The notes beneath the pieces were generated by a model. The model ran no database searches. It was not told the DNA's origin and was given only the letters and a program-made list of their open reading frames with translations. The position numbers and the translations under genes were made by a program. A stretch of 26,238 nucleotides of DNA from a virus (Duplodnaviria > Heunggongvirae > Uroviricota > Caudoviricetes): the IMG/VR virus record IMGVR_UViG_2728369593_000006; one strand, given 5' to 3'. This document shows, piece after piece, positions 713 through 26,178 of this stretch (positions are counted from its first letter, which is position 1; every line of letters starts with the position of its first letter).

Positions 713-1389
713 TTAGGCCTTTATTTGGTATCTTCTTGGTTTTCCTGAGAAAATTACTGTACCAATTATAGAGCAATTACCGTTAATCTTAATGTAAGGC
801 TCAGGCCAGTTTGGGTTTAATGCTTTGAGATAACGCTGTGTTCCATCTTCTATCAATCGCTTGAAGGTGGTTTCGCCTGTATCGTGCATCAATGCAATAA
901 CGTCGTCACCGTGGCAGGCAGGGACTTCGGGATCAACAAAAATCATGTCTCCCGGGCGGTACTCATCAATCATTGAATCACCAATCACCCGCAAGATATA
1001 AGTCATTTCGCCACAGGGTACAGGGCAGGGATAAGTTTCTGCTGTGCTCAAATCAACCTCAGAATAGCCAACTTCTTTCCATGCTCCGGCCTGTACCCAT
1101 GATATGACAGGGACTAACGTTATTTGTTTGTTAGTAATTGAAACATCAGGTTTTTTTGTGATGTTTGTTGTCTGGTGTTCTTGATCAAGCCATCCGACAG
1201 GCAGGTCGAAACATTTTTCGATGTGCCGTGCCATTGCTGTCACCGATTATTTTTAGTAGCACCATCTCCCATAAACCTGCTGGTCTGGGTTGGCTCGCGA
1301 TCAATCATGGTGGCAAAGGAAGAATTCCCGCCAACACCATCTCTCAGTTTTCTGGCGTTAGACCGCCGGATGTCATGGACTGTTTTCAT
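713..1389 (-). pseudogene. cI: CI-like prophage repressor (N-terminal HTH plus C-terminal S24 LexA-like autopeptidase domain), reading frame split by an apparent 1-bp deletion near 1244-1252
   Basis: ORF 713..1243 encodes an S24 domain closely resembling the lambda CI C-terminal domain (VIGDSM..., FKRL, LNP) but only about 45 aa precede it. A separate reverse-strand frame from ATG 1389 encodes MKTVHDIRRSNARKLRDGVGGNSSFATMIDREPTQTSRFMGDGATKNNR*, a typical repressor HTH, stopping at 1242..1240. The two frames join across an A/T-rich run. Confidence 0.6.
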
Positions 1390-1405
1390 AACGAAATTAA
1401 AACCT

Positions 1406-1424
1406 TTGTACCGATAGGGTACAA
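1406..1424. promoter_or_regulatory. Operator-like inverted repeat TTGTACC-N5-GGTACAA in the divergent repressor/cro intergenic region (candidate OR; PRM/PR region spans about 1390-1479)
   Basis: Perfect 7-bp arms read directly; a possible PR -35 TTGAAG (1429-1434) and -10 TAATAT (1452-1457) lie between it and the cro RBS GGAGG (1465-1469). Confidence 0.35.
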
Positions 1425-1479
1425 GTATCTTGAAGGTTCATCTCAATCATGTAATATGTATATCGGAGGTACATATTGT

Positions 1480-1680
1480 ATGAAAGCGTATTGGGACTCT
1501 TTAACCAAAGAACAGCAGGGCGAGTTGGCCGGAAAAGTTGGCTCAACACCTGGCTACTTACGGCTGGTTTTCAATGGCTATAAAAAAGCCAGTTTTGTGC
1601 TGGCTAAAAAACTTGAGCAATGCACGTCAGGTGCAATTACGAAATCTGACTTAAGACCGGATATCTATCCGAAAGATTAA
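1480..1680 (+). CDS. cro: Cro-like transcriptional regulator (Cro/YdaS family)
   Basis: 66 aa; GGAGG RBS 10 nt upstream of ATG; divergent from the repressor; C-terminal DLRPDIY motif typical of YdaS/Cro-like proteins (family assigned from memory). Confidence 0.7.
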   Translation: MKAYWDSLTKEQQGELAGKVGSTPGYLRLVFNGYKKASFVLAKKLEQCTSGAITKSDLRPDIYPKD

Positions 1681-2275: not shown

Positions 2276-3108
2276 ACAGTTTAACGGCAAATAACCGTTT
2301 GTCGCAACAGCTGGTGGTCAGCGTCGCTGAACACCTGTTGTTACGGCATGAATGCAGATTACCAAATCACCTGGCTGTAAGTAACCACAGAGAACTTTAC
2401 CTGACTGTGGGGGGCGAGTTGTGCAGGAACTTAACCGCTGGTTTCGTGACGGAAGAGGACTTTATGTTCATGTTATTCGTTGGGAGCCAGAAACACAGCG
2501 CGTTATCTATCTTCGCAAAGACTACCCGCATGAGTGCTTTAGTCCTTTGTGGAAATTCAGGCGTGATTTTGTTGAGTGTGAAGGACCACCAGCACATTGA
2601 TTCTGCCATTCCGGGACGTTACACTGTTCAGGCACCTTATAAAGCGGGTGCCGGGATTGGCGTCCTGGAATTGATCAAGGCGATATATGACGCGCCAGCG
2701 TCTTTTTTATCGTCCGCATTTGCTCACATCAAAGTTATGGTGGGCTGGGCGGGGGCATCGAAAGATGCGCCGGTTTCCTTGATCACCGGTTACGCCAACC
2801 CCGTTCAGTTCACCACCAGCGAAATTGGCGTTTCCGGTGGTGGAAGTATTTCACCGATCAAGGAGGCTGCCATCATGGCTACTGTCCCAGCCCTCACTCG
2901 TCTGAATGATGAAGACTTACATAAACTCAGTTATGTAACAACTGCACTACGTGCTCTGCGCAAGGTAACTCTTTCGGATCCGCAGGCGCATCAGGTTTTG
3001 GTAGAAACCCTTCTTAACTTGCAGGCTGAACGTATTCGTCTGGCGGATAAGGCTAATTTTCATATTCACCGTCTCCTGAATATCAGCGGAGGGCATCGTC
3101 ATGCTTAA
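2272..3108 (+). CDS. Hypothetical early-operon protein
   Basis: 278-aa ORF whose ATG overlaps the upstream stop (ATGA), indicating translational coupling; no family recognised. Confidence 0.4.
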   Translation: MNSLTANNRLSQQLVVSVAEHLLLRHECRLPNHLAVSNHRELYLTVGGELCRNLTAGFVTEEDFMFMLFVGSQKHSALSIFAKTTRMSALVLCGNSGVILLSVKDHQHIDSAIPGRYTVQAPYKAGAGIGVLELIKAIYDAPASFLSSAFAHIKVMVGWAGASKDAPVSLITGYANPVQFTTSEIGVSGGGSISPIKEAAIMATVPALTRLNDEDLHKLSYVTTALRALRKVTLSDPQAHQVLVETLLNLQAERIRLADKANFHIHRLLNISGGHRHA

Positions 3109-3337
3109 TCCGTTGATCCTCAATATTTGCCGTTTGCTTCAGCGTAAAAAAACATCAATTCCTACAGTTGGGCAGTGGTACACCACGCCTGCAGGGCATG
3201 TTCTACGTGTTAGCCTGGTTGACCGTGAATGTCAGAAGGTGATTTGTGAACCGCTGGGCCGTAATTACCGCGTCAGTATGCCGCTTATAACCTTTCGCTC
3301 CGGAAAAAACATGAAGCATCTCGGAGGTGCAGCATGA
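3101..3337 (+). CDS. Hypothetical small protein
   Basis: 78-aa ORF with start and stop overlapping its neighbours in the coupled operon. Confidence 0.35.
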   Translation: MLNPLILNICRLLQRKKTSIPTVGQWYTTPAGHVLRVSLVDRECQKVICEPLGRNYRVSMPLITFRSGKNMKHLGGAA

Positions 3338-4220: not shown

Positions 4221-4709
4221 ATGAGTCTTTTGAATGAAGTTCAGAAATTCATTGAAGCCCATCCGGGGTGTACTTCCGGAGACATTGCGGATGCTTTTGC
4301 AGGTTACTCACGGCAGCGCGTTCTGCAGTCAGCAAGCAAGTTACGTCAGAGTGGGCGTGTGGCTCACCGTTGTGAAGGGGATACACGCAGACATTTCCCG
4401 CGCCAGACAAAGATATCGCCGGAGGCGGAACGGCAACCAGTTCGTGAAACCAGACCTGTGCGCAATTTCTATGTCGGCACTAACGACCCGCGGGAGATTT
4501 TATGCCTGACCCGCCAGGCTGAAGAACTGGAGTCCAGGGGCTTATACCGTCGTGCTGCAACGGTGTGGATGGCGGCATTCCGTGAAAGCCACTCCCAGCC
4601 AGAACGAAACAATTTTCTGGCGCGTCGTGAGCAGTGTTTACGGAAAAGCAGCAAGCGCGCTGTATCGGGTGATGAGTGGTATCTGTCAGGGAATTACGTG
4701 GGGGCTTAA
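4221..4709 (+). CDS. Putative transcriptional regulator: N-terminal wHTH, C-terminal PerC/ANR-like domain
   Basis: C-terminal motif LESRGLYRRAATVW...RREQCL resembles the PerC family (GLWRRAA...RRNYCL) as recalled from memory; start at ATG 4221 (ORF track begins at GTG 4215). Confidence 0.4.
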   Translation: MSLLNEVQKFIEAHPGCTSGDIADAFAGYSRQRVLQSASKLRQSGRVAHRCEGDTRRHFPRQTKISPEAERQPVRETRPVRNFYVGTNDPREILCLTRQAEELESRGLYRRAATVWMAAFRESHSQPERNNFLARREQCLRKSSKRAVSGDEWYLSGNYVGA

Positions 4710-5362: not shown

Positions 5363-5685
5363 CGACGTTAACTCAATGCCAGCAGCAGGTGCTGGATATG
5401 CTGATTTCTTATCAGAAAGAACGTGGCTTCCCGCCAACCAATCAGGAGGTGGCAACCATGCTGGGATACCGTTCGGTGAATGCAGCGGTGGAGCATCTTC
5501 GCGCACTGGAGAAAAAAGGCGTCATCACGATAAAGCGTGGCGTGGCCCGGGGGATCACGCTTCATACCGCAGTGAAGGACGACGACAGCGAAGCGGTCGG
5601 TATCATCCGCGCACTGCTTGCCGGTGAGGAGAACGCCAGGTTGCGTGCAGCCCACTGGTTACATGAGAGGGGCTTGAAAGTATGA
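5359..5685 (+). CDS. LexA N-terminal DNA-binding-domain homologue without a peptidase domain
   Basis: 108 aa; LTQCQQQVLDMLISYQKERGFPPTNQEVATMLGYRSVNAAVEHLRALEKKGVI parallels E. coli LexA residues about 1-70 ([53 protein letters not shown]). Confidence 0.65.
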   Translation: MTTLTQCQQQVLDMLISYQKERGFPPTNQEVATMLGYRSVNAAVEHLRALEKKGVITIKRGVARGITLHTAVKDDDSEAVGIIRALLAGEENARLRAAHWLHERGLKV

Positions 5686-6072
5686 AGTTGATCCTTCCTT
5701 TCCCGCCCAGTGTGAACACGTACTGGCGACACCCCAACAAAGGGGCATTTGCTGGTAAGAGCCTGATAAGCGAGGCGGGGCGAAAATTTCAGAGCGCGGC
5801 GTGCGCAGCAATAGTTGAGCAGTTACGTCGTCTGCCGAAACCAACGTCGGCACCTGCTTCAGTGGAGATCGTGTTGTTTCCGCCGGATAACCGGATCCGT
5901 GATCTGGACAACTATAACAAGGCGCTGTTTGACGTCCCTGACCCCAGCGGGTGTGTGGGAAGACGACAGACAGGTGAAAAGAATGCTGGTGGAGTGGGGA
6001 CCGGTTATCCCGAAAGGGAAGGTCGAGATCACTATCAGTAAGTACGAGAAAACGGCGGGTGCAGCCGCCTGA
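5682..6072 (+). pseudogene. rusA: RusA Holliday-junction resolvase, interrupted by a +1 frameshift at about 5934-5940
   Basis: Frame A (5682..5936) ends ...DLDNYNKALFDV then reads nonsense; frame B continues LTPAGVWEDDRQVKRMLVEWGPVIPKGKVEITISKYE to the stop at 6072, matching the RusA C-terminus; junction is at a CCC run (GTCCCTG). Confidence 0.7.
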
Positions 6073-6091: not shown

Positions 6092-6902
6092 ATGAATAAT
6101 CTGATGGTCATTGATGGTATTGAAGTTCGTCGTGATGCTTTATGGACGTTACAGCCTGAACGATCTGCATCGCGCAGCAGTAGCATCTGGTGCAAATGCC
6201 AGAACCAAGGAGCCAGGAAAGTTTCTTTCCAGCCAACAAACTGTTGAGCTTGTTCATGAATTGACCAACACCCAGAATTTGGGTGTTGACCCGGTGAGTG
6301 TGATTCATGGGGGAAATGAACGGGGAACGTATGTCTGCAAGGAACTGGTGTATGCCTATGCAATGTGGATCAGCCCGTCATTCCATCTGAAGGTGATCCG
6401 TACTTTCGATATGGTAACCAGCGCACCGGAAAAATTATCCGGGCAGGCTGCTGACAAGATGCAGGCTGGTGTGATTCTGCTGGACTTTATGCGCAGGGAG
6501 TTAAACCTGTCTAACTCTTCAGTGCTTGGGGCCTGTCAGAAACTCCAGGAGGCTGTTGGCTTACCGAATCTGGCACCGCGCTATGCCATTGATGCTCCTG
6601 CTGATGCACACGATGGCTCAAGTCGCCCGACACTGTCACTGAGTGCACTGCTGAAACAGTATGGTATCCGCCTGACGGCTAATCAGGCATATCACCAGAT
6701 GGTGAAGCTGGGGATCGTCGAGCAGCGCGAACGATACAGCCGTACCGCGATTAACAACATCAAAAAATTCTGGTCGCTGACAGCGAAAGGCTGCATGTTC
6801 GGCAAGAACATCACCAGTCCCGCAAATCCGCGCGAGACGCAGCCGCATTTCTTCGAATCCCGATTCCCTGAGCTGTTAAAGCTGCTCGATACCGTACATT
6901 GA
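6092..6902 (+). pseudogene. KilA-N domain protein, N-terminus interrupted by a +1 frameshift at about 6137-6143
   Basis: Strong RBS AAGAGGAG before ATG 6092 gives MNNLMVIDGIEVRRDA then stops after 51 codons; the long ORF (from 6111, other frame) carries the rest of the KilA-N domain (YGRYSLNDLHRAA...[33 protein letters not shown]); junction is at a TTT run. Confidence 0.55.
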
Positions 6903-6903: not shown

Positions 6904-7900
6904 GTGACCGTGAGAGCACTACTGACCCCTGAAATTGCCCCGCGTATGGGGATCGTATTGTTCAGACCAGGTTCAGAGCTGATGCCCCTGTTTATGCAGG
7001 GGCGTGTCCTGCTGGAGCCTGAGCCGGAGCATTATTCATCTTTCGCCAGTGGTGCCGTTCCCGCGGCATCACAACCGCTGGCGGATGATCCTGTCGTTCG
7101 GGCCGTGTTCCGTAATGAGGCAGTGATTCGTCGTGCTGGTGGCGTGGAATGTCTTGAAAGCTGGTTACTTCGTAAAAAAGGCTGCCAGTGGCCTCATTCC
7201 GACTGGCACAGCGAGAACATGACCACAATGCGACACGCGCCGGGCGCAATCCGTCTGTGCTGGCACTGTGATAACCAGCTGCGCGATCAGTTCACGGAAC
7301 GGCTGGAATCAATGGCAACGGATAACTGTACCCGCTGGGTGTTGTCTGTTGTGCGTCGGGATCTCGGTTTTGATGACAGTCACGTTGTGACAATTGCCGG
7401 AACTGTGCTGGTGGCTGATTCGTAATGACCTGGCGGATGCCTTACCGGAAAGTGCAGCCCGTAAGGCACTGAGATTACCAAAGCCTGTTGTGCCGTCTGT
7501 CACCCGGGAAAGTGACCTTGTGCCTTCGGTTCCTGCCACCAGCATCATCCAGGATAAAGCGAAAAAGGTGCTGGCGCTGAAAGTGGATCCGGAGTCGCCG
7601 GAGTCTTTTATGTTACGCCCAAAACGTCGCCGCTGGGTTAATGAAAAGTACACGCGCTGGGTTAAGACACAGCCGTGTGCATGTTGTGGAAAGCCCGCTG
7701 ATGATCCCCACCACCTGATAGGTCACGGTCAGGGTGGAATGGGAACAAAAGCGCATGACCTTTTTGTGTTGCCTTTGTGCAGAAAGCATCACGACGAGCT
7801 GCATGCGGATACCGTGGCATTTGAAGAGAAGTATGGCTCCCAGCTGGAGCTGATATTTCGTTTTATCGATCGTGCGCTGGCAATTGGCGTGCTGGCCTGA
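6904..7900 (+). pseudogene. DUF968/YdfU-like protein with HNH-like C-terminal motif, possibly split by a +1 frameshift near 7418-7426 (alternatively two adjacent genes)
   Basis: ORFs 6904..7425 and 7394..7900 lie in different frames and overlap; combined length (about 340 aa) is what I recall for YdfU-type DUF968 proteins; C-terminal CxxC...HH...H motif. Confidence 0.4.
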
Positions 7901-7917
7901 TTTTGTGGAGAAAGTTG

Positions 7918-8283
7918 ATGCGTGATATTCAAATGGTTCTTGAACATTGGGGGGCATGGGTGGCAAATAATCACGAGGATGTCACTTGGTCGTCTATTGC
8001 TGCAGGATTTAAAGGACTAATCCCTTCAAAAGTAAAATCCCGCCCGCAATGTTGTGACGATGACGCGATGATCATTTGTGGATGCATGGCTCGCCTGAAA
8101 AAGAACAACAGCGATTTGCACGATTTATTAGTGGATTATTATGTAGGTGGTATGACGTTTATGGCGCTTGCCCGTAAACATGGGCGTTCTGATTGCTGGG
8201 TTGGGCGTTTATTGCAAAAGGCTGAAGGTGTAGTTGATGGCATGTTAATGATGTTAGAAATTGAGCTAGAGATGGATCGTTAG
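7918..8283 (+). CDS. Q: Late-gene antiterminator Q (phage 82 / QuuD type)
   Basis: [33 protein letters not shown]...[33 protein letters not shown] closely matches the E. coli DLP12 QuuD sequence as recalled; GTGGAG RBS 8 nt upstream. Confidence 0.8.
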
Positions 8284-8325
8284 AAGACCTCTTATTGAGG
8301 GGGTAATTGAATCAGTTTAATGTGT

Positions 8326-8356
8326 GGGGAGTCGATTTATTCTCCCCATTTTATTT
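8326..8356 (+). terminator. Rho-independent terminator about 45 nt downstream of Q (candidate tR')
   Basis: Stem GGGGAG/CTCCCC (8326-8331 / 8342-8347) followed by ATTTTATTT; U-rich tail is on the plus strand only. Confidence 0.5.
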
Positions 8357-8367
8357 AATTAATTTAC

Positions 8368-8814
8368 TTAAGGTTTTAATTCATCAAGACGTTGTTGGAT
8401 AGTGTTTTTGCTTGCGTTGTCTGTTATAGCCATTTGTTGTACTTGCCCCATTGCCATTTGAGTTTCCATCCACATATCGGCCCACACTTTTGTATCGTTA
8501 TTAACTTGAGCGATAGTAAATTTGACTTTTGATACCGGGGTTGTTGAATAGGCATTGCCGATTAACATTTGTCCAAAAACAGCAGACCCGCCTTCCAGTT
8601 CTTTACCACATATAACACTGCTGTTATCCGCGTTGTAAATTATCAACCCTCTACTATTGCAGTAATTCACAAGGGCATCTTTGACTTTATCTTTTGTCGT
8701 ATTTTGATAAACCCCCTCAGGTTTTCCTGATTGAGTTTTCTTTATCAATGGTACGGAAGAAGTACAACCTGAAATGATAGTTGCGCTAAGTAATAATACA
8801 GTCATTTTATTCAT
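8368..8814 (-). CDS. Lipoprotein of unknown function (moron in the Q-lysis interval)
   Basis: 148 aa; N-terminal signal peptide with lipobox LLSATIISG-C; AT-rich coding sequence; opposite orientation to the flanking phage operons. Confidence 0.6.
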   Translation of the reverse strand: MNKMTVLLLSATIISGCTSSVPLIKKTQSGKPEGVYQNTTKDKVKDALVNYCNSRGLIIYNADNSSVICGKELEGGSAVFGQMLIGNAYSTTPVSKVKFTIAQVNNDTKVWADMWMETQMAMGQVQQMAITDNASKNTIQQRLDELKP

Positions 8815-9084
8815 GTTTCTTATCCATTGTTAAGGGCATACCCACACAATTATTTTTATTGGAGATGAATAATCAACCGTTTACAATCGTAAAAAATCAA
8901 ATATGCTGTTAAGAGTGGTTACTTCGCCACACAACTTAAACCCGCCGCTGAGCGGTTTTTTTGTACCTGTAAACCTGGAGCAGTACAGTAAACACGCTGG
9001 TGGTCGTGAATACTGACTTTTTATCTTGCTGGCTTTTTAGACAAGAGTTATTGGTATGTCATGTTAACCAGAAGGGAAAAAGAC

Positions 9085-9288
9085 ATGCTAAAACAGCAAG
9101 ATATGACAGAAACCGCCGCAGCAGTCCTTCATTTCTTACCTGCTGACAAGTGGGTAACGCCACGCATGATGACGAGAACTACCGGAGTAAGCGAAGCCCG
9201 GTGCCAGTTAATACTGACTCAGTTAGTTCTGGCGGGTCTGGCGAAGGATAACGGCGGGTACGGGAATAAATTCAGACGCTGCCAGTAA
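9085..9288 (+). CDS. Hypothetical small wHTH-like protein (ORF track start 9061; ATG 9085 has the better RBS)
   Basis: 67-75 aa ORF; AAGGGAAA about 7 nt upstream of ATG 9085; no family recognised. Confidence 0.3.
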   Translation: MLKQQDMTETAAAVLHFLPADKWVTPRMMTRTTGVSEARCQLILTQLVLAGLAKDNGGYGNKFRRCQ

Positions 9289-9438
9289 TGGCGGTTTCCT
9301 GCTGTGAAAATGGGCGGCTGGTGGGTGTTGGTAGCACCTGCCAGCCATTCGCTCATGCTTACTGGTCACAAGCGAACCACGGCCCACTGCTTTAGCGCAA
9401 AAGCAGAGTGAGCCTACCAGAGTTACGCTTACAGATCC

Positions 9439-10491: not shown

Positions 10492-10497
10492 TCTGGT

Positions 10498-10522
10498 GGC
10501 CACGTAGGTGGCCTTTTTATTT
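10498..10522 (+). terminator. Rho-independent terminator after the methyltransferase gene
   Basis: Stem GGCCAC/GTGGCC with GTAG loop (10498-10513) followed by TTTTTATTT. Confidence 0.5.
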
Positions 10523-12118: not shown

Positions 12119-12386
12119 GTAAGAGCAGGCATTACAGCAGCCCTTCACTGAGGGGCTGCGATAATGTGAGGAATAAAAAAACCGGCAGGGGAAATCCATT
12201 GAAGATTTGCCGGTGGCAAAAGATGGCCATGCTTTTAACCTTAGTAGCAGAGCTACGGAGTTCAACAACGACCGTCGCCGTTATCTTGCTGAAAGGCGTT
12301 TCAATGATTTTCATCAATTTATTCATCAGCAATGGTGATAATCACTCTCATTTTGGCGGGTCCTTCCGGTGGGGTGGCCTGCCACG

Positions 12387-13118: not shown

Positions 13119-15219
13119 ATGGGTTTTTCATCAGCCCGAAATTTGGGAAGGGACATATCGGCAGGATTTTCCCCACCACGTCGCATGCCGATTTCGGAGG
13201 CTGTTAAAAAATTCATGCGTGTTCCCAAGGGGGCTGGTAACTCGGTGCCATGGGATCCTGAACTGACACCCTACATCATTGAGCCCATGAACTGCCTGGC
13301 ATCGCGTGAATACGATGCGGTGATTTTTGTTGGTCCTGCGCGAACAGGGAAGACCATTGGTCTGATCGATGGATGGATTGTCTATACCATCGTTTGCGAT
13401 CCTTCGGACATGCTCGTTGTGCAGATGACCGAAGATAAGGCCCGCGAGCATTCTAAAAAGCGCCTCGACAGAACGTTCAGAAGCAGTGCGGCGGTAAAGA
13501 AAAGAATGAGTCCACGTCGTAACGACAATAATGTTCATGATAAGACGTTCAGGGATGGCTCGTTCCTTAAAATTGGTTGGCCCTCGGTCAACATTATGTC
13601 GTCGTCGGATTACCGGTTTGTCGCCTTAACCGATTACGACCGTTTTCCGGAGAATATCGACAGCGAGGGTGATGGTTTCTCCCTGGCCTCAAAACGTACC
13701 ACCACATTTATGTCCGCCGGGATGACTCTGGTGGAGAGCTCGCCGGGACGTGACATCTGCGACAGCAAATGGCGACGTAAGTCGCCTCATGAAGCGCCAC
13801 CGACGACTGGTATTCTTTCCCTTTACAATCGTGGTGACCGCCGCCGCTGGTACTGGCCATGTCCGCACTGTGGTGAGTATTTTCAGCCAGCCATGGATGC
13901 CATGACCGGCTACCGTAATGAACCGGATCCCTTTAAAGCCAGTGAGGCGGCGTATCTACTTTGCCCGCACTGCAGCGGCATTATCACTGCGGAGAAAAAG
14001 CGTGAGCTCAATAGTGCAGGAGTCTGGTTGCGTGAAGGTCAGGTCATTGATCGTAACGGCAACGTTTCCGGTGAACCGCGCCGCTCCCGTATCGCCAGTT
14101 TCTGGATGGAAGGGCCAGCTGCTGCGTATCAGACCTGGGCGCAACTGGTTTACAAATTACTGACTGCAGAACAGGAGTATGAAGCGACAGGAAGCGAAGA
14201 AACACTCAGGGCGGTTATCAATACCGACTGGGGATTACCTTATCTTCCCCGCGCCAGCATGGAGCAACGAAAAAGTGAACTGCTTGAGCAGCGGGCAGAG
14301 CCAGTTCCTTCCCGCAGTGTGCCGGATGGCGTTAATTTCCTTGTGGCGGCAGTGGATGTGCAGGCGGGACGTCATCGCCGTTTTGTGGTTCAGGTAACGG
14401 GCTATGGCAGCCGTGGCGAACGCTGGATTATTGATCGTTACAACATCACGCAGCCATTGCGCGGTGACAGCGACGGGGAGAGCCAGCGAATTGATCCGGC
14501 CAGCTATCCGGAAGACTGGGATGTCCTGCTGACGGATGTTTTTCATAAAAAGCTGGCCGCTGGCCTCCGATCCTTCTCAACAAATGCGACTGATGGCAAT
14601 GGCGGTGGACTCCGGCGGTGAAGACGGGGTCACTGATAATGCCTATAAATTCTGGCGTCGTTGCCGTCGTGATGGCCTTGGTAAACGTATTTACCTGTTT
14701 AAGGGCGACAGCATCCGGCGCGCAAAACTGATCACCCGTACATTCCCTGATAACACCGGACGAACGGGCCGACGGGCGCAGGCCGCAGGTGATGTGCCGC
14801 TCTGGCTTCTTCAGACGGATGCCCTGAAAGACCGGGTGAATAACGCGTTATGGCGTGACTCGCCAGGTCCCGGCTATGTGCATTTCCCTGACTGGCTGGG
14901 GAGCTGGTTTTACGACGAACTGACGTACGAAGAGCGGAGTAGTGACGGGAAATGGAGTAAGCCGGGTCGCGGTGCCAACGAAGCTTTTGACCTGATGGTG
15001 TATGCCGAGGCTCTGGTCATTCTGCATGGATACGAAAAGATCCGCTGGCCGGATGCACCGGAGTGGGCGAGCCGGGAAACCTGGCTGGAGTGTGTCCCGG
15101 ACAGTACCGAACCGTCACCCTCACCGGAACCAGTATCCACGCCTGTTAAAAAACAAAAACGGAAGAAAACAGTAACTGACGATGTTAACCCCTGGCTGAC
15201 TTCCGGAGGATGGTTATGA
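13119..15219 (+). pseudogene. Terminase large subunit (lambda GpA family), interrupted by a +1 frameshift at about 14553-14590
   Basis: Walker A GPARTGKT and the CPHCG...CPHC zinc-finger region in ORF 13119..14621; the remaining C-terminal region (ORF 14536..15219, MAMAVDSGG...) is in the next frame with an 86-bp overlap; combined length about 700 aa. Confidence 0.75.
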
Positions 15220-15429
15220 ACCAGAATGATATCGAAGCCATGATTCAGCGTTAATACGGAAGCTGAAATGGCGGTGCTGGACGGAAAATCCGTCACCTTT
15301 AATGGTCAGCAGATGACCATGGAAAACTTATCTGAGATCCGGCAGGGACGGCAGGAGTGGGAGCGCCGCCTTGCGGCTCTGATTACACGACGACGGGGGC
15401 ATCCCGGGTACCGGCTGGCGAGGTTCTGA
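15216..15429 (+). pseudogene. gpW-like head-tail joining protein, apparently split by a +1 frameshift near 15247-15255
   Basis: ATG 15216 (ATGA overlap with terminase stop) gives MNQNDIEAMIQR*; the next frame continues NTEAEMAVLDGKSVTFNGQQMTMENLSEIRQGRQEWERRLAAL... to a stop overlapping the portal ATG; combined size about 70 aa, as for lambda W. Confidence 0.4.
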
Positions 15430-16937: not shown

Positions 16938-16950
16938 TTCCTGGTTCAGG

Positions 16951-18909: not shown

Positions 18910-18933
18910 ACGTCGCAGACAACAACTCTGATG

Positions 18934-18952
18934 GCCCGTAAGGGCTTTTTTT
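18934..18952 (+). terminator. Weak terminator-like hairpin plus T7 run downstream of the capsid gene (possible intra-operon attenuator)
   Basis: GCCC-GTAA-GGGC stem-loop followed by TTTTTTT; stem is only 4-5 bp. Confidence 0.35.
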
Positions 18953-18995
18953 GTACCTGAAATCAGCCCCTGAACGGGGCTGTGCGGAGACAGTT

Positions 18996-19319
18996 ATGGC
19001 AAAGAATTTTGTAGAAGAAGGAAAAACGGTGGCGATTGTTGCCAGTGCAGCCATCAGCAGCGGAGATCTGGTGCAGGTGGGTGATGTTTTTGCGGTGGCG
19101 CTGACCGATATTCCACAGGGTGAAACAGGCGACGGCATGACCGAAGGTGTGTTTATCCTGCCTAAGCTGAAAACGGATGACATGAAAACGGGTAAGAAGG
19201 TTTATCTGAAGTCCGGAAAAGTTCAGCTGACTAACAGCGGCTCTGATCCGCTGGTCGGGGTTGTCTGGGCAGATGCCGGAACCAGTGCAGAAGAAGTGCC
19301 GGTAAAACTCAATGTCTGA
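18996..19319 (+). CDS. Small head-associated protein (DUF2190-like; possible decoration or connector protein)
   Basis: 107 aa directly after the capsid gene; family recalled from memory. Confidence 0.45.
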   Translation: MAKNFVEEGKTVAIVASAAISSGDLVQVGDVFAVALTDIPQGETGDGMTEGVFILPKLKTDDMKTGKKVYLKSGKVQLTNSGSDPLVGVVWADAGTSAEEVPVKLNV

Positions 19320-19587
19320 TCCCTTTTCTCGGCTGGCAGCGCGTATGGATGCGATCACGGTCAGAAAGATGGGAAAGACAGCCTCGATTAATGATGTCGA
19401 TATGGCTGTGATCCCGGGCGAAACACTGGCAGAGCTGAATGCTCTGTCCGGACCTGCTGTCTCTCTGGTGGTGTTTTCTTTGGGATACCGCCCACGGCGC
19501 GGGGATCGCGTTGTTTATGACGGACAACATTGGACGGTCACACGGCATGAACGCTTTAACGGTAAGCCAATGATCTTTATTGAGTAA
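19312..19587 (+). CDS. Head-tail joining protein (lambda FII-like)
   Basis: 91 aa; N-terminal MSDPFSRLAARMDA and C-terminal RRGDRVVYDGQHW parallel lambda FII (MADFDNLFDAAIARADE ... RRGDTLTIGEENFW) as recalled. Confidence 0.5.
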   Translation: MSDPFSRLAARMDAITVRKMGKTASINDVDMAVIPGETLAELNALSGPAVSLVVFSLGYRPRRGDRVVYDGQHWTVTRHERFNGKPMIFIE

Positions 19588-19598
19588 AGAGGTGTGGG

Positions 19599-20177
19599 AT
19601 GAAGGGGCTTGAGAATGCCATCCGCAATCTGAACAGCCTTGATACCCGTATGGTGCCACAGGCCAGCGCATGGGCGATAAACCGTGTGGCACAGAAAGCG
19701 GTCTCGGTTGCCACCCGGCAGGTTGCCGGGAATACCGTTGCGGGAGATAACCAGGTGAAAGGGATACCCCTGAAACTGGTACGTCAGCGTGTCCGGGTGT
19801 TTAAAGCCAGTCCGTCAGGAAAAATGACGGCCAGGATCCGCGTCAACCGGGGCAATCTGCCCGCCATTAAGCTGGGGACAGCCCGGGTCAGACTGGCCCG
19901 GCGTGGTGGAAAACTGCAGTACCGTGGCAGTGTGCTGAAGGTGGGTAAATATCTTTTCCGGGATGCGTTTATTCAGCAACTGGCGAATGGTCGCTGGCAT
20001 GTGATGCGGCGTATTGATGGCAAAAATCGTTACCCCATTGATGTGGTGAAAATCCCGTTGTCCGGACCGCTGACACAGGCATTTGAAGATGCCCGCGACC
20101 GCATCATTGCTGCGGAAATGCCGAAACAGTTGGGTTATGCACTGAAACAACAACTGAGGTTATGGCTGACCCGATGA
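19599..20177 (+). CDS. Z: Tail completion protein Z
   Basis: 192 aa; strong match to lambda gpZ (…FIQQLANGRWHVMRRIDGKNRYPIDVVKIPL…LGYALKQQLR). Confidence 0.75.
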   Translation: MKGLENAIRNLNSLDTRMVPQASAWAINRVAQKAVSVATRQVAGNTVAGDNQVKGIPLKLVRQRVRVFKASPSGKMTARIRVNRGNLPAIKLGTARVRLARRGGKLQYRGSVLKVGKYLFRDAFIQQLANGRWHVMRRIDGKNRYPIDVVKIPLSGPLTQAFEDARDRIIAAEMPKQLGYALKQQLRLWLTR

Positions 20178-20575
20178 ACCGACATACACAAATCCGCCAG
20201 GTCGTACTGGCACGCCTTCGGGAACAGTGTGGAGACAGCGCCACGTTTTTTGACGGGCTTCCGGCATTTGTTGATGCGCAGGAACTGCCTGCCGTGTCGG
20301 TGTGGCTGAGTGATGCTCAGTACACCGGAAAAATGACGGATGAAGATGACTGGCAGGCTGTTCTGCATATTGCTGTCTTCATCCGGGCACAAGCACCGGA
20401 TTCAGAGCTGGATATGTGGATGGAGAGCACCATTTTCCCGGCCCTGAATGATGTACCGGCACTTTCCGGACTCATCGACACCCTGATCCCACTCGGTTTT
20501 AACTATCAACGTGATAATGAGATGGCCACCTGGGCGATGGCGGAAATCACGTACCAGATCACGTACACGAATTAA
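20174..20575 (+). CDS. U: Tail terminator protein U
   Basis: Matches lambda gpU (ATFFDG...PAVSVWL...YTG...QAVLHI...PDSELDMWMES...ITYQITY); ATG 20174 overlaps the Z stop (ORF track start 20162). Confidence 0.75.
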   Translation: MNRHTQIRQVVLARLREQCGDSATFFDGLPAFVDAQELPAVSVWLSDAQYTGKMTDEDDWQAVLHIAVFIRAQAPDSELDMWMESTIFPALNDVPALSGLIDTLIPLGFNYQRDNEMATWAMAEITYQITYTN

Positions 20576-20585
20576 GGAGGTGGTA

Positions 20586-21329
20586 ATGACCACACCAAAT
20601 CCACTGGCAAAAACGAAAGGTGCGGGAACGACGTTCTGGATGTATACCGGCAACGGCGACGCATTTGCGAACCCTTTGTCGGACACTGACTGGCTGCGTC
20701 TTGCGATGGTGAAGGATCTGCAACCTGGCGAAATGACCGCTGATGCAGAAGATGACACTTATCTCGATGATGAAGATGCAGACTGGAAAACGACAACCCA
20801 GGGGCAGAAATCCGTTGGTGATACTTCGGCGACGCTGGCCTGGCGTCCGGGTGACAGCGGGCAGAAAAAACTGGTTCAGTTGTTCGACTCCGGTGAAGTC
20901 TGCGCGTTTCGTATCAAATATCCCAACGGCACTGTTGATGTTTTCCGTGGCTGGCTGAGCTCACTGGGTAAAACCATTGCCTCAAAAGACGTGATGACCC
21001 GCACAGTGAAAATCAGCGGTGTGGGGCGTCCGTATCTGGCAGAGGAAGGCACTGAAACCGTGGGCGTTACCGGGCTGACGGTGGCACCGGCATCTGCCAG
21101 TGTAAAAGTGGGAGCAACCACCACGCTGACCTTTACAGTAAAACCTGACGGAGCCAGTGACAAAGCGATCAGTGTGCATTCGACAGATCCACAGACTGCC
21201 ACGGTGACCCTGAACGGGCTTGTGGCCACGGTGAAAGGCGTGAAGCAGGGCAGTGTCAGCATTGTGGGCATGACTTCTGACGGCGATTTTGTGGCAGTGG
21301 CTACGGTGGCTGTCAGCGCCGCAGGTTAA
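20586..21329 (+). CDS. V: Major tail protein V with C-terminal Ig-like domain
   Basis: AAGGAGG RBS 6 nt upstream of ATG 20586; about 247 aa; Thr/Val-rich Ig-like C-terminus as in lambda gpV. Confidence 0.8.
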   Translation: MTTPNPLAKTKGAGTTFWMYTGNGDAFANPLSDTDWLRLAMVKDLQPGEMTADAEDDTYLDDEDADWKTTTQGQKSVGDTSATLAWRPGDSGQKKLVQLFDSGEVCAFRIKYPNGTVDVFRGWLSSLGKTIASKDVMTRTVKISGVGRPYLAEEGTETVGVTGLTVAPASASVKVGATTTLTFTVKPDGASDKAISVHSTDPQTATVTLNGLVATVKGVKQGSVSIVGMTSDGDFVAVATVAVSAAG

Positions 21330-21386
21330 CAGGACGATACTCATCATTTGCCCCGGTTATCCGGGGCTTTTTTTCAGGTGGAGAAC

Positions 21387-21776
21387 ATGATGTTTCTGAA
21401 ACAGGGCACGTTTAATTATGAAAAGCAGTCCGTGGTGCTCAGTGAGCTGTCCGGGCTGCAGAGAATTGAATATCTGGCGTTTGTTCAGCAGCGAACGGCA
21501 AAGTTTGATGCCGAAGAGGGAGAACTGCCGGAGGCTGAACGACAGATTGCTTTTCTGCGGATGGGGATGGATATCAATGCCTGGCTGGTTTCCCGCTCAC
21601 TGTGGAATGCGGATCAGTCTAAGGATGTAGAGACGCTTTGCGCATCCGTTATTACAACATGGTCGTATGATGCCCTGGGTGCGGGGGCGGAGATGGTTCT
21701 GTCGCTGAGCGGTATGGGGACCATTGATAATGCCGGGGATGATGAGCATGAGGCGCTGACGCCGGAAAAGTCCTGA
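21387..21776 (+). CDS. G: Tail assembly chaperone G
   Basis: MMFLKQGTFNYEKQSVVLSELSGLQRIEYLAF... parallels lambda gpG (MFLKTESFEHNGVTVTLSELSALQRIEHLAL...); AGGTGGAG RBS. Confidence 0.7.
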   Translation: MMFLKQGTFNYEKQSVVLSELSGLQRIEYLAFVQQRTAKFDAEEGELPEAERQIAFLRMGMDINAWLVSRSLWNADQSKDVETLCASVITTWSYDALGAGAEMVLSLSGMGTIDNAGDDEHEALTPEKS

Positions 21777-21784
21777 CGCGGGAA

Positions 21785-22114
21785 ATGCAGTTTGTCATGC
21801 GGCTTGCCCGGGAGTTCCGGCGGGCAGACTGGCGGCGGATGCTGTCGGAAATGTCGGCCACTGAGCTTGGTGAGTGGGGCGATTATTTCCGGATGCAGAG
21901 CTTCAGTGATGTGTGGATGGATGCGCAGTTTGCCTCGCTGAAGGCATTGATCGTGAGAATGGTGTCCGGCAGCAGTGATGCTGCGGTGGCTGATTTCAGC
22001 CTTTTACCGGAAGAGAACGGGATACCGGAGCGAACGGACGAAGAACTGATGCATCTTGGGGAAGGTATTTCCGGAGGTGTGCGTTATGGACCAGATAGCC
22101 AACCTGGTCATTGA
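21785..22114 (+). CDS. T: Tail assembly chaperone T-like ORF in the -1 frame relative to G (probably made as a G-T fusion by programmed frameshifting)
   Basis: ORF in the -1 frame, open from 21752 and overlapping the end of G; A-rich heptamer GGAAAAG (21764-21770) precedes the G stop; arrangement conserved between G and H in lambda-like phages. Confidence 0.55.
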   Translation: MQFVMRLAREFRRADWRRMLSEMSATELGEWGDYFRMQSFSDVWMDAQFASLKALIVRMVSGSSDAAVADFSLLPEENGIPERTDEELMHLGEGISGGVRYGPDSQPGH

Positions 22115-25100
22115 TTTGGGGATTGATGCGGCAGAGTTTAAAAATGAAATCCCCCGTATCAAAAACCTTCTGAATGGTGCAGCCAGCGATGCAGAACGGT
22201 CTTCTGCCCGTATGCAGCGTTTTATGGAGCGTCAGACTCAGGCCGCCCGGCAGACAACGCAGGCGGCTTCTTCGGCTGCAACAGCCGCATCCGTCCATGC
22301 GCAGACGGTGGAGAAGAACGCACAGGCTCATGAACGCATGGCCCGCGAGGTGGAGAAAACCCGCCAGCGCATGGAGGCGCTGAGCCAGAAAATGCGCGAG
22401 GAACAGGCGCAGGCCATGGCTCTGGCGGAGGCTCAGGATAAAGCGGCTGCTGCGTTTTATCGTCAGATTGACAGTGTGAAACAGGCCAGTGCGGGGCTGC
22501 AGGAATTACAGCGTATTCAGCAGCAGATCCGACAGGCCAGAAACAGTGGCGGGATTGGTCAGCAGGATTATCTGGCGCTGATTTCTGAGGTTACGGCGAA
22601 AACCCGTGTTCTTACACAGGCTGAGGAAGAGGGTACCCGACAGAAAGTGGCGTTTATCCGTCAGCTTAAAGAGCAGGCAACCCGCCAGAATCTTTCATCT
22701 TCTGAGTTGCTTCGTGCTAAGGCTGCCCAGCTGGGGGTAAGCAGTGCTGCAGAAGTGTATATCCGCAAAATGGAGCAGGCAGGAAAAGCCACGCATTCGC
22801 TGGGTCTGAAAAGTGCAGCGGCCCGCCAGGAGATAGGCGTTCTGATAGGTGAACTGGCCCGCGGCAATTTAGGGGCGCTGAGGGGATCCGGGATAACGCT
22901 GGCTAACCGTGCCGGATGGATAGACACACTGATGTCACCGAAAGGCATGATGCTGGGCGGGGTTATTGGCGGTATTGCCGCAGCTGTCTATGGTCTGGGT
23001 AAAGCCTGGTATGACGGTCAGAAGGAGGGGGAAGAATTTAACCGCCAGCTGTCGCTGACGGGGCATTATGCCGGAGTCACTGCCGGGCAGCTGTGGACGC
23101 TCAGTCGTGCTATTTCCGGGAATGGTATCACGCAACATGCTGCAGCCGGTGCGCTGGCTCAGGTGGTGGGGAGTGGTGCATTTCGTGGAAACGATATCGG
23201 TATGGTGGCGAGAGCTGCCGCACAGATGGAGCGATCGGTTGGCCAGTCGGTCAGCGATACCATAAGTCAGTTTAAGCGGCTGAAGGATGATCCTGTAAAT
23301 GCCGCGAAGGCTCTGGACAATGAGCTGCATTTTCTTACTGCCACTCAGCTTGAGCAGATACGCGTCCTTGGGGAACAGGGGCGGTCCAGTGATGCGGCAC
23401 GGATAGCCATGTCTGCACTGGCAGAGGAAACCGGTCGGCGTACTGCGGATATTGATAATAACCTCAATGCGCTGGGCAGTACGCTGAAGTATCTGTCTGA
23501 TTTATGGAGTCGTTTCTGGGATGCGGCCATGAATATTGGTCGTGAAGACTCGCTGGATGAACAGATTTCCGCTTTACAGGAGAAAGTGTCGCGGGCGAAA
23601 AGACTCCCCTGGACGGCATCATCTTCTCAGGTTGAGTACGATCAGCAGCGTCTTAACGAGCTTCAGGAAAAAAAACGCCAGAAGGATTTGCAGGATGCAA
23701 AAGAGCAGGCAGAGCGGAATTATCAGGAGCAACAGAAACGCCGTAATGCTGAAAATGCTGCACTGAACCGGATGAATGAAACGGAAGCAGCACGACATCA
23801 GCGTGAAATTGCGCGTATTAATGCCATGCAGTACGCCGATCAGACTGTCAGGGATGCGGCGATACAACGTGAAAATGAACGTTACGAGAAAGCCCTGGCA
23901 TCCGGTAAGAAAAAAACACGCGAAACCCGTAATGATGAGGCCACCCGGTTATTGCTGCAGTACAGTCAGCAACAGGCACAGGTGGAAGGACAGATTGCTG
24001 CTGCCAGACAGTCAGCAGGCATTGCCACGGAAAGGATGACAGAAGCGCATAAACAGCTTCTGGCTCTGCAGCAGCGCATCAGCGACCTGGACGGGAAAAA
24101 ACTGACGGCAGATGAAAAGAGTGTGCTGGCCCGTAAAGATGAACTGATTCAGGCACTGACGCTGCTGGATGTAAAACAGCAGGAGCTTCAGAAACAGACG
24201 GCACTCAACGAGCTGAAGAAAAAAACAATTCAGCTGACCAGTCAACTGGCTGAAGAAGAGCGTGCTCAGCGTCAACAACATAATCTGGATATCGCCACGG
24301 TGGGTATGGGTGATCAGCAGCGGCAGCGATATCAGGTACAACTGAGTCTTCGTCAGAAATACCAGCAACAGCTGGAGCAGTTGAGGCGGGATAGTGAGCA
24401 GAAAGGGACATATAACACGGATGACTACAGAAAGGCCGAGCAGGCGCTGACGGAGAGCCTGAACCGACAACTGAATGAGAATCGCCGTTACTGGCAACAG
24501 CTTGAAATTGCTCAGGGTAACTGGAAAAACGGAGTCCTGCGTGCACTCCAGAATGTCACTGAGAATGCGGATAACACAGCCTGGACAGTGGAACAGTTGT
24601 TCACGTCTGCGTTCAGTAGCATGAGTGACTGGCTGGCGACATTCTGTACTACAGGCAAACTCAATTTCAAATCTTTTACTTCTTCTGTGCTGTCAGATAT
24701 GTCCAGAATCATGGCTCAGATAGCTTTAATGAAAGCGGTAAAAGGCATTGCTTCCGCGCTGCCTTTTGATTTTGTAGCCAATGCTGATGGCGGTGTTTAT
24801 CAGTCGGCTGATTTGAGTCGCTACAGTGGCACGGTGGTTAACCGTCCGACGTTTTTTGCTTTTGCAAAAGGCGCGGGTGTGATGGGGGAAGCGGGACCTG
24901 AAGCCATTCTGCCATTGCGTCGTGGTGCTGACGGTAAGCTGGGGGTTGTGGCGGATATTGGGGGTTCAGGTATGGCGATGTTTTCCCCGCAGTACAACAT
25001 CGAGATCAATAACGATGGCACGAACGGGCAGATAGGTCCGGCTGCCCTGAAGGCGGTTTATGACCTCGGGAAAAAAGCGGCAGCGGACTTTATGCAACAG

Positions 25101-25142
25101 CAGGCCCGTGATGGTGGTCGGTTAAGTGGAGCATATCGGTAA
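22086..25142 (+). CDS. H: Tail tape measure protein H
   Basis: About 1018 aa, Ala/Gln/Arg-rich coiled-coil character, positioned between G-T and M; GGAGG RBS before ATG 22086. Confidence 0.85.
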   Translation: MDQIANLVIDLGIDAAEFKNEIPRIKNLLNGAASDAERSSARMQRFMERQTQAARQTTQAASSAATAASVHAQTVEKNAQAHERMAREVEKTRQRMEALSQKMREEQAQAMALAEAQDKAAAAFYRQIDSVKQASAGLQELQRIQQQIRQARNSGGIGQQDYLALISEVTAKTRVLTQAEEEGTRQKVAFIRQLKEQATRQNLSSSELLRAKAAQLGVSSAAEVYIRKMEQAGKATHSLGLKSAAARQEIGVLIGELARGNLGALRGSGITLANRAGWIDTLMSPKGMMLGGVIGGIAAAVYGLGKAWYDGQKEGEEFNRQLSLTGHYAGVTAGQLWTLSRAISGNGITQHAAAGALAQVVGSGAFRGNDIGMVARAAAQMERSVGQSVSDTISQFKRLKDDPVNAAKALDNELHFLTATQLEQIRVLGEQGRSSDAARIAMSALAEETGRRTADIDNNLNALGSTLKYLSDLWSRFWDAAMNIGREDSLDEQISALQEKVSRAKRLPWTASSSQVEYDQQRLNELQEKKRQKDLQDAKEQAERNYQEQQKRRNAENAALNRMNETEAARHQREIARINAMQYADQTVRDAAIQRENERYEKALASGKKKTRETRNDEATRLLLQYSQQQAQVEGQIAAARQSAGIATERMTEAHKQLLALQQRISDLDGKKLTADEKSVLARKDELIQALTLLDVKQQELQKQTALNELKKKTIQLTSQLAEEERAQRQQHNLDIATVGMGDQQRQRYQVQLSLRQKYQQQLEQLRRDSEQKGTYNTDDYRKAEQALTESLNRQLNENRRYWQQLEIAQGNWKNGVLRALQNVTENADNTAWTVEQLFTSAFSSMSDWLATFCTTGKLNFKSFTSSVLSDMSRIMAQIALMKAVKGIASALPFDFVANADGGVYQSADLSRYSGTVVNRPTFFAFAKGAGVMGEAGPEAILPLRRGADGKLGVVADIGGSGMAMFSPQYNIEINNDGTNGQIGPAALKAVYDLGKKAAADFMQQQARDGGRLSGAYR

Positions 25143-25471
25143 TGGAGACGTTTCACTGGAAAGTGCGCCCGGATATGAATGTGGTATCAGAGCCGAAAGT
25201 GGTGACAGTGAAGCTGGGCGATGGTTATGAACAGCGTCGTGCGGCGGGACTGAATAACCAGTTGTCGACTTACAGCGTGACGATACGTGTTCGTAAATGT
25301 GAACACCCATCTTTAAAAGCCTTTCTGGAACGGCACGGTGGCGTCCGCGCATTTCAGTGGACGCCACCTTATGACTGGAAACCGATTAGGGTGGTTTGTC
25401 GTAAATGGTCGGCAAGCGTGGGGGCGCTGTGGGTAACCATAACGGCAGATTTTGAACAGGTCGTGGCATAG
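25142..25471 (+). CDS. M: Minor tail protein M
   Basis: 109 aa, same length as lambda gpM with conserved GDGY, HGG and WTPPY motifs. Confidence 0.8.
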   Translation: METFHWKVRPDMNVVSEPKVVTVKLGDGYEQRRAAGLNNQLSTYSVTIRVRKCEHPSLKAFLERHGGVRAFQWTPPYDWKPIRVVCRKWSASVGALWVTITADFEQVVA

Positions 25472-25480
25472 GAGGCTCTG

Positions 25481-26178
25481 ATGCAGGATATTCCACAGGA
25501 AACACATCATGAGACGACACGCCTCACTCAGTCAGCCCAGGTGGTGCTCTGGGAAATCGATCTGACAGAGGTCGGTGGTGAACGTTATTTTTCTGTAATG
25601 AGCAGAACGAAAAAGGTGAGCCGGTTACCTGGCAGGGGCGGCAGTATCAGGCATACCCCATTCAGGGGACAGGATTTGAACTGAACGGCAAGGGCAGTGC
25701 TGCCCGTCCGACACTGACGGTTTCTAACCTGCACGGCATGGTCACGGGGATGGCGGAAGACCTGCAGAGTCTGGTCGGCGGAACGGTGGTCAGGCGTAAG
25801 GTTTACGCCCGTTTTCTGGATGCGGTGAACTTCGTCAACGGAAACAGCGACGCCGATCCGGAGCAGGAGGTGATCAGCCGCTGGCGCATCGAGCAGTGCA
25901 GCGAACTGAGTGCGGTCAGTGCCTCCTTTGTGTTGTCCACACCGACGGAAACGGATGGTGCTGTTTTTCCGGGGCGTATCATGCTGGCCAACACCTGCAC
26001 CTGGACCTATCGCGGTGATGAGTGTGGTTATCACGGTCCGGCTGTCGCGGATGAATATGACCAGCCGACGTCCGATATCACGAAGGATAAATGCAGCAAA
26101 TGCCTGAGCGGCTGTAAGTTTCGCAATAACGTCGGCAACTTTGGCGGCTTCCTTTCCATTAACAAACTTTCGCAGTAA
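25481..26178 (+). pseudogene. L: Minor tail protein L, interrupted by a 1-bp deletion in a T-run at 25588-25592
   Basis: N-terminal ORF (25481..25684) matches lambda gpL through ...VVLWEIDLTEVGGERYF then goes out of frame; the downstream ORF (..26178) matches lambda gpL almost residue for residue (MVTGMAEDLQSLVGGTVVRRKVYARFLDAVNFVNGNS...FGGFLSINKLSQ); restoring TTTTTT for TTTTT gives an intact 232-aa L. Confidence 0.8.

Follow-up and report, generated by a model that had tools for sequence, protein, structure and literature searches.

Enterobacteria phage cdtI (NC_009514 / AB285204), a lambdoid phage that is inducible and Cdt-I-converting, and the prophage of Escherichia coli DCE7 (NZ_CP090611) are described systems with the same gene order as the DNA analyzed here. 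In the cdtI group, the cargo genes cdtABC, cif, and nleH lie downstream of the tail fiber genes. The stretch under study (26,238 nucleotides; hereafter the window) is the entire contig AKYH01000141.1 of the draft E. coli assembly GCA_001605745.1, and a literature search for AKYH01 or GCA_001605745 found no publication on the accession or the genome; adjacent WGS prefixes are assigned to unrelated organisms, and the genome was hence submitted singly. Over window positions 12387-26238, cdtI and the DCE7 prophage are 99.87-99.9% identical to the window, with cdtI coordinate 1 corresponding to window position 12387, and where collinear the early regions are 98.4-99.6% identical; for cdtI NC_009514, identity is 99.87% over 13.85 kb and 99.55% over the immunity region. 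The structural module runs from a TerS-like DUF1441 gene through the GpA terminase, W, portal, and ClpP-capsid fusion genes to H, M, and L. The window differs from cdtI and the DCE7 prophage in its Q module, which carries a 148-aa ORF (7964-8906), and in its Ash/Rha module (2670-3170), and it has an intact PerC-family gene where 395 bp are deleted in both of them. The near-identical, collinear structural module and the YmfK/YdaS immunity region place the window in a prophage of the Cdt-I type, the cargo region lying outside it: the contig ends 60 nt past L, before the K/I/J and tail-fiber-downstream region.

Like degraded E. coli lambdoid prophages, the window has structural and regulatory genes that are non-functional as annotated, but the kind of damage differs. 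One degraded relative (L025) has suffered a large deletion that leaves cro directly adjoining the C-terminal third of TerL, two (L027 and L036) carry IS insertions, and two (L039 and L043) carry nonsense codons. The window has no large deletion, IS insertion, or nonsense codon, only 1-bp indels in genes that are otherwise perfect, and the remaining 26 genes of the 33-gene comparison all have their full length and follow the usual order. The contrast with eroded prophages drawn by the first-pass annotation, and its description of the neighboring genes as intact and canonically ordered, are thus borne out.

Comparison with the references revealed nine private 1-bp indels in the window, 8 insertions and 1 deletion, all of A or T, and confirmed that seven conserved genes are each interrupted by such events. 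The cI-type repressor gene (713..1389, minus strand; LexA/S24-family, YmfK-like) is split past codon 47 by two extra T residues between plus-strand positions 1234/1235 and 1247/1248, rather than by the single lesion originally placed at about 1244-1252; the net +2 shifts the reading frame as a -1 would, hence the deletion proposed earlier. Both T residues are missing in all 7 references aligning there, and without them the gene encodes 224 aa, 100% identical to the repressor of the E. coli DCE7 prophage. The rusA Holliday-junction resolvase gene (5682..6072, plus strand) does contain an extra base within the interval first reported (5934-5940), although this base, which occupies 5935, is a T (G[T]CCC) that precedes the CCC run and not a member of it; it is missing in 9 references, an adjacent 2-nt change (CA for AC) is present at 5945-5946, and the corrected RusA is 129 aa and 99.2% identical. 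The KilA-N domain gene (6092..6902, plus strand) carries TT expanded to TTT at 6139-6141, at codon 16/17, exactly as had been claimed for the TTT run at 6137-6143, and its corrected product of 269 aa is 100% identical to WP_001061438-type proteins. The DUF968/HNH gene (6910..7900, plus strand), previously listed as a possible further case, is indeed broken, into ORFs of 171 aa and 168 aa, by a T to TT change at 7394/7395 that is missing in 10 references; the site first suggested (7418-7426) is the stop codon of the shifted frame, and the corrected protein is 329 aa.

Farther along the plus strand, an A-run at 12175..12181 has seven residues where all relatives have six; this extra A, missing in 11 references, is the sole private indel outside genes. 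The gene for the large terminase subunit (GpA-type; 13119..15219, plus strand) is split into ORFs of 500 aa and 211 aa by an A4 to A5 change at 14547-14551, just upstream of the 14553-14590 interval to which the lesion had been assigned. Three private transitions lie near it (14454, 14928, and 15132), and the corrected TerL is 699 aa and 99.7% identical. The W-like head-tail gene (70 aa; 15216..15429, plus strand) is broken within the expected interval (15247-15255) by an A to AA change at 15253/15254, missing in 10 references, and the corrected protein is 100% identical. Finally, the minor tail protein gene L (25481..26178, plus strand) has T5 at 25588-25592 where the references and lambda have T6, both as first described, yielding ORFs of 67 aa and 146 aa; the corrected 232-aa protein is 100% identical, and its exact sequence is found on at least 1000 contigs. 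The initial count of five insertions and two deletions therefore does not hold, the physical events being 8 insertions and 1 deletion, one of them intergenic. Most events do lie in or beside short homopolymers, as noted earlier, the exceptions being two that extend no homopolymer or are 0->1 calls. The runs span 1-7 nt overall, and about half of the events fall at single bases or 2-nt runs.

All nine indels are missing in every reference that covers the respective site, which is 6-11 of the 14 references depending on the site. L016, the closest relative, is collinear with the window over 20.5 kb and 99.9% identical, and the 6 gaps between them are exactly the six insertions of the window within that span, accompanied by 20 substitutions, 13 of which fall inside one recombination patch. 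For two further relatives (L018 and L019), a 12.2-kb alignment with the window shows 3 gaps and 3 substitutions. Against a small reference set, the window appeared to have 26 private substitutions, most of which disappeared once L016-L019 were added. As judged from these alignments, the ratio of indels to substitutions relative to L016, L018, and L019 is very high for coding sequence in functional genes.

The same privacy was evident in large collections. Among ~15 billion proteins, the truncated RusA (119 aa), KilA-N (262 aa), and DUF968 (171 aa) products are recorded for AKYH01000141.1 only, as is the truncated TerL (500 aa), for which a search of 153 billion gene positions gave that contig alone. 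Exact k-mer scans returned zero matches for a 37-mer spanning the cI double insertion in IMG/VR, and zero for a 25-mer spanning the terminase A5 in 185,579 GTDB species-representative genomes. The cI, rusA, KilA-N, DUF968, and L genes were free of frameshifts in all of 9-22 other genomes per gene, and the frameshift load of the window, set against zero in these genomes, is far more than chance would give. The W-like insertion was in none of 9 other contigs carrying the 53-aa W fragment. As a bait, this fragment is uninformative, given that gene callers often choose an internal ATG whether W is intact or damaged, and the Dam protein proved too common for the purpose (10,085 index blocks). None of the eight insertions was found in any other assembly, and hence no sign of their inheritance by related isolates. 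Even after correction, TerL, RusA, and DUF968 are likewise missing from the collection of ~15 billion proteins, indicating that the strain has not been sequenced independently and that there is no intact same-strain copy for comparison. A planted or synthetic origin of the mutations was considered and rejected, since the records of the public contig already include four of the truncated products.

Absence from every relative also bears on whether the interruptions might be functional, through programmed ribosomal frameshifting, transcriptional slippage, or slipped-strand phase variation. Programmed frameshifting is indeed established for G-T of lambdoid phages, and the terminase site (CAT AAA AAG) superficially resembles an A-rich slippery motif. 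The lambda-type G/GT programmed -1 frameshift is a genuine two-frame arrangement within the same gene cluster (G and T ORFs at 21390-22114), but it is kept in all relatives, whereas the seven interruptions are kept in none, a single uninterrupted frame being found throughout at every site. Moreover, the shift that A AAA AAG promotes is -1, not the +1 that an inserted base would call for, and most of the sites are runs of 1-3 nt, too short for slippage or phase variation. Because there is no conservation among relatives, recoding is effectively refuted, and we assign it a negligible probability.

To consider how the indels are distributed, we compared their placement with that of natural 1-bp indels among the references. 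Eight of the nine private indels lie within coding sequence, in a window that is 91.9% coding, consistent with random placement (binomial p=0.53). By comparison, 13 of the 14 natural 1-bp indels lie between genes or at a stop codon, and the other is an oddity of the cdtI record; the two placements differ (Fisher p=1.6e-4). The private indels thus appear blind to the reading frame, with no visible imprint of purifying selection. Removing 8 bases and adding 1 makes all seven proteins full length and 98.2-100% identical to intact homologues, which was the comparison the first-pass annotation had proposed. None of the seven corrected proteins showed further damage 3' of the shift, and no secondary mutations, deletions, or IS elements were found around the broken genes (seven corrected proteins and 26 other genes).

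These data can be weighed against genuine decay, in which a recently inactivated prophage would have lost immunity, packaging, and tail functions through a burst of 1-bp events, as might happen in a strain deficient in mismatch repair or exposed to a mutagen. Decay of prophage genes does occur, and mismatch-repair defects favor 1-bp indels in runs; furthermore, a natural 119-aa RusA frameshift allele exists on 71 contigs, related W-like genes carry nonsense codons or other frameshifts, and the two contigs of the assembly agree on the T5 in L. However, the protein encoded past every shift still matches intact homologues at 98-100% identity, runs of 1-2 nt account for about half of the events while mutators favor long runs, and 0/4 tested truncated products recur elsewhere. 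A further difficulty lies in the physiology of lysogeny. By established lambda biology, a prophage that lacks repressor but has working Q, holin, endolysin, Rz, and replication genes should not be stably carried, and all of these genes are intact in the window, so that a cI-null prophage of this kind would kill its host. This argument would be weaker if a second prophage of the same immunity supplied repressor in trans. Taken with the sister contig described below, whose own ten private deletions have no plausible biological origin, these observations make genuine decay very improbable.

A second contig of GCA_001605745.1, AKYH01000163.1, repeats window positions 15471-26238 (10.8 kb). Relative to the window, it has ten 1-bp deletions and 4 substitutions, all private to AKYH01000163.1; the shared 10.8 kb contain no natural polymorphism between the two. 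The deletions are clustered, with 3 in 44 nt, 6 in 128 nt, and one more, and the three within 44 nt restore the portal frame. Only the L site of the nine in the window falls inside the compared overlap, and there both contigs agree (T5); their final 2.2 kb are also identical, down to a common end base. This comparison serves as a test of how error-prone the assembly is, and it shows the same DNA rebuilt with other indels. Were the indels instead real and the contigs two resident prophage copies, each would have to have been frameshifted independently by some targeted or error-prone process. If true, prophages would be domesticated by a route not yet described, for instance a host or phage activity that inactivates them by frameshift mutagenesis, but we give this reading hardly any credence.

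The T5 in L is the only event common to both contigs, and it could be a true mutation, a systematic miscall, or the product of reads common to both contigs, making this site the least certain of the nine as an error. One may therefore ask whether the T6 to T5 change alone is real, marking a true tail-defective prophage, with the other eight indels being errors. The change is the only event seen in both contigs and the only deletion, and it lies in the longest coding run (T6). On the other hand, the shared terminal 2.2 kb with its common end base suggests that both contigs may derive from the same reads and would then not be independent. T5 is also present in GCA_026105695.1, an unrelated, visibly noisy assembly whose prophage genes are shredded by gaps (53 gap openings in 10.8 kb), showing that this run is readily under-called. 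We consider a real change restricted to L to be unlikely.

Collectively, the results indicate that the frameshifts are very probably consensus errors, introduced by base calling or assembly in a low-quality draft, and not mutations of the phage. This agrees with the preference of the first-pass annotation for sequencing error over erosion, and it is upheld by indels that are private, placed as by chance, and reversible, and by a sister contig with a different set. The case, built from sequence comparisons, is very strong circumstantial evidence as opposed to direct proof. We envisage that miscounted single bases, mostly A/T over-calls beside an identical base, entered the consensus at assembly, and that gene callers then split seven genes, while the living prophage would carry the uninterrupted sequence. 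Homopolymer consensus errors of the kind known from 454/Ion Torrent and early PacBio/ONT data are likewise 1-bp over- or under-calls, mostly beside an identical base, private to one assembly, and blind to frame, and the sister-contig clusters of ~50-130 nt, not reproduced between contigs, are similar in character. Unlike miscounts of long runs, about half of the events here are at single bases, and there is one 0->1 and one 1->0 event, which implies very low depth and not long-run miscounts alone. The bias also differs between the contigs, being strong toward insertions and A/T in AKYH01000141.1 and toward deletions in AKYH01000163.1. The platform may have been a flow-based or other indel-prone one read at low depth, for which such over-calls are typical, although the bias toward insertions (8/9) and A/T (9/9) cannot be tied to a specific chemistry.

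The significance of these findings is one of quality control only. The contig and, by extrapolation, the whole of GCA_001605745.1 (~1 indel per 1-3 kb) are unfit for inferring pseudogenes, defective prophages, or gene content, and automated annotation of such sequence generates spurious split proteins, which already stand as singletons in large protein collections. The approach also offers a recipe for recognizing artifacts without reads, combining indels private to one assembly, coding placement at the level of chance, perfect proteins once the indels are undone, and redundant contigs of the same assembly that disagree. As for the phage itself, the underlying lambdoid prophage of the Cdt-I type is probably intact and functional, an ordinary relative of the Cdt-I-converting phage.

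The ORF map and similarity searches identify the window as a lambdoid prophage, in which an immunity region encoding an S24/LexA-type repressor and a YdaS-type Cro is followed by genes for Ash, a replication HTH protein, PerC, Dam, a LexA-like protein, RusA, KilA-N, DUF968, Q, an orphan methyltransferase and holin/endolysin/Rz, and then by those for DUF1441, a GpA-type terminase, a W-like protein, the portal, a ClpP-capsid fusion and the tail up to L. Over 12387-26238, identity is 99.87% to phage cdtI (NC_009514), base 1 of which corresponds to 12387, and 99.9% to a prophage of E. coli DCE7 whose cargo comprises cdtABC, cif and nleH. The window has an intact PerC-family (YfdN-like) gene at 4299-4693, whereas both of these relatives carry a 395-bp deletion there, annotated in DCE7 as a truncated remnant. 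The methyltransferase gene (type II N6/N4 DNA, 9439-10491; PADLOC MTase_II, E=3e-152) is located after the Q region and before the holin gene, and the window contains no restriction partner for it. Between Q and the methyltransferase gene, a stretch of low GC content (8284-9084, about 39%) carries a minus-strand 148-aa ORF (8368-8814; phrog_3152) with neither a Pfam nor a PADLOC match; cdtI and DCE7 instead have a DUF6731 protein and a 147-aa protein here, and the site resembles a variable cargo ('moron') slot. The G/T tail-chaperone junction (21755-21790) is without the GGGAAAG slippery heptamer of lambda, the G gene ending in CCG GAA AAG TCC TGA.

The window was aligned first with cdtI and one complete E. 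coli genome, and with 14 references in all. Nine 1-bp indels were private to it. Two are extra Ts in the cI-type repressor gene (1234/5 and 1247/8, net +2); further Ts are inserted in rusA (5935, 5' of the CCC run, with CA in place of AC ten bases on), the KilA-N gene (6139-6141, TT to TTT) and the DUF968 gene (7394/5), and As in an intergenic region (12175, A6 to A7), the terminase gene (14547-14551, A4 to A5) and the W-like gene (15253/4). The ninth is the loss of a T from L (25588-25592, T6 to T5), where lambda has T6 at the homologous site. The first-pass annotation had thus named the right interrupted genes, and its statement that the neighboring genes are intact holds for all 26 of the other genes compared, each of which is full length. 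The positions it assigned to the terminase and DUF968 lesions proved to be downstream stop codons, and of the two deletions it proposed, the one in L was confirmed, while the other is in fact the double insertion in cI.

Removing the eight insertions and putting back the lost T yielded a cI of 224 aa, 100% identical to its DCE7 homologue, along with RusA (129 aa, 99.2% identity), KilA-N (269 aa, 100%), DUF968 (329 aa, 98.2%), TerL (699 aa, 99.7%), W (70 aa, 100%) and L (232 aa, 100%). The corrected DUF968 protein is absent from a collection of 15 billion proteins. Comparison of the corrected proteins with their homologues revealed no decay 3' of any of the shifts, implying that the frameshifts are either extremely recent or not real.

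An exact-protein look-up showed that a second contig of the same draft assembly (GCA_001605745.1), AKYH01000163.1 (contig 163), carries the same 67-aa L fragment as the window, which is the whole of contig AKYH01000141.1 (contig 141). Its last 10,758 bases (7003-17760) correspond to window positions 15471-26238, and both contigs end on the same base. Contig 163 differs from the window by ten 1-bp gaps, at each of which it lacks a base, and by four substitutions, two of which form a GT/TG swap adjoining a gap. The portal gene has three of these gaps in 44 nt (net -3), the protease-capsid gene has six in 128 nt, and the tape-measure gene has the last (GACAG to GAAG). Each of the fourteen differences is private to contig 163, with the window matching every reference there, and no natural polymorphism separates the contigs over 15471-26238. 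One assembly therefore gives the same DNA twice, with single-base noise as the sole disagreement (1-bp indel rates of about 3.4e-4 per base for contig 141 and about 1e-3 for contig 163), which shows that its consensus is unreliable at the level of 1-bp indels, whether the strain has one copy or two. The L lesion could be real, given that both contigs share the T5 run; they are identical over their last 2.2 kb, and may have been built from common reads. The only other assembly with T5, GCA_026105695.1, has all its prophage genes shredded, with 53 gap openings over 10.8 kb. The T6 run is clearly easily under-called, and we consider it unlikely that the L lesion is genuine.

The coding fraction of the window is 91.9%, and eight of the nine private indels fall in genes, matching random placement. 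Among the references, in a count that omits compensated gap pairs from aligning the divergent Ash module (2671-2859), 13 of 14 natural 1-bp indels are intergenic or at a stop codon (Fisher p=1.6e-4 for the contrast). Selection has filtered the natural indels but not those private to the window. Natural 1-bp length polymorphisms common to several genomes occur at 8956 (a T6/T7 tract), 10506 and 26177, the last at the L stop codon; two of these sites are hairpin-plus-T-run sequences resembling terminators, one following the Q-region cargo and the other the methyltransferase gene. The one exception among the 14 natural indels, at 19554, derives from the 2007 cdtI record, which alone has a 1-nt gap and three substitutions at 19554-19558 (about 7166 in cdtI), reading G-ACCAAC where the window and most other genomes have GCTTTAAC and three genomes GTTTTAAC. 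As a result, the annotated FII-like gene of cdtI is shorter (261 vs 276 nt), and the difference is probably an error in that record.

Searches of about 15 billion proteins and 153 billion gene positions found the exact truncated TerL (500 aa), RusA, KilA-N and DUF968-N products in AKYH01000141.1 only, and diagnostic k-mers had no match in IMG/VR or in 185,579 representative genomes. In the other genomes compared (9-22 per gene), no frameshift was seen in cI, RusA, KilA-N, DUF968 or L. Programmed recoding and phase variation were ruled out: the arrangement lacks conservation, and the runs are not long enough. The closest relative found, GCA_051138945.1, is collinear with the window over 2579-23112 and differs by 20 substitutions and six gaps, the latter being exactly the six private insertions of the window in that interval; two further relatives differ by three substitutions and three gaps over 12.2 kb. 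Such near parity of indels and substitutions within functional genes is not what natural divergence would be expected to leave.

Thirteen of the 20 substitutions lie in a 300-nt stretch of the N-terminal half of DUF968 (7029-7330), which looks like a recombination patch. Private transitions at 14454, 14928 and 15132, one of which alters an amino acid (S446P), lie within 800 nt also holding the terminase and W insertions, and may reflect a low-quality consensus patch or strain-specific changes; 16604-25587 has no private changes at all. Elsewhere, natural-looking 119-aa frameshift alleles of RusA (P0002-P0010) are shifted a few codons 3' of the site in the window, one of them (P0003) in 71 contigs, among them Shigella sonnei and complete chromosomes, and frameshifts seem to recur at 5930-5960, through either real mutations or errors.

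Related prophages (L025, L027, L036, L039, L040, L041 and L043) do display real-looking decay, including 1-bp shifts in W at other positions. Unlike the window, degraded relatives have cro fused by a large deletion to the last third of TerL (L025, GCA_949767365.1), IS elements inserted before W or TerL (L027, L036), W genes with nonsense codons (L039, L043) or deletion junctions (L035, L037, L042). The repressor of the window is split inside its DNA-binding domain, and Q, holin, endolysin, Rz and the replication genes are intact. By established lambda biology, a lysogen of this kind would be derepressed and should lyse, unless another prophage supplied repressor. Real, recent pseudogenization, for example in a mutator background, would leave the viability of such a cI-null lysogen unexplained, as well as the chance-level hitting of genes and the clustered, frame-restoring deletions of contig 163, and we regard it as highly improbable.

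Taken together, the private indels, the restored proteins, the chance placement and the sister contig support the reading preferred in the first-pass annotation, and the interruptions are very probably sequencing or assembly errors. In the main these are miscounted run lengths, 1 to 2 among them, while 0 to 1 and 1 to 0 changes are rare; they cluster within about 50-130 nt, a spectrum consistent with early long-read or flow-based sequencing at low depth. A literature search found no paper citing the accession, and adjacent WGS prefixes are those of unrelated organisms. The interruptions are no biological feature, but a textbook assembly artifact over a known kind of phage.
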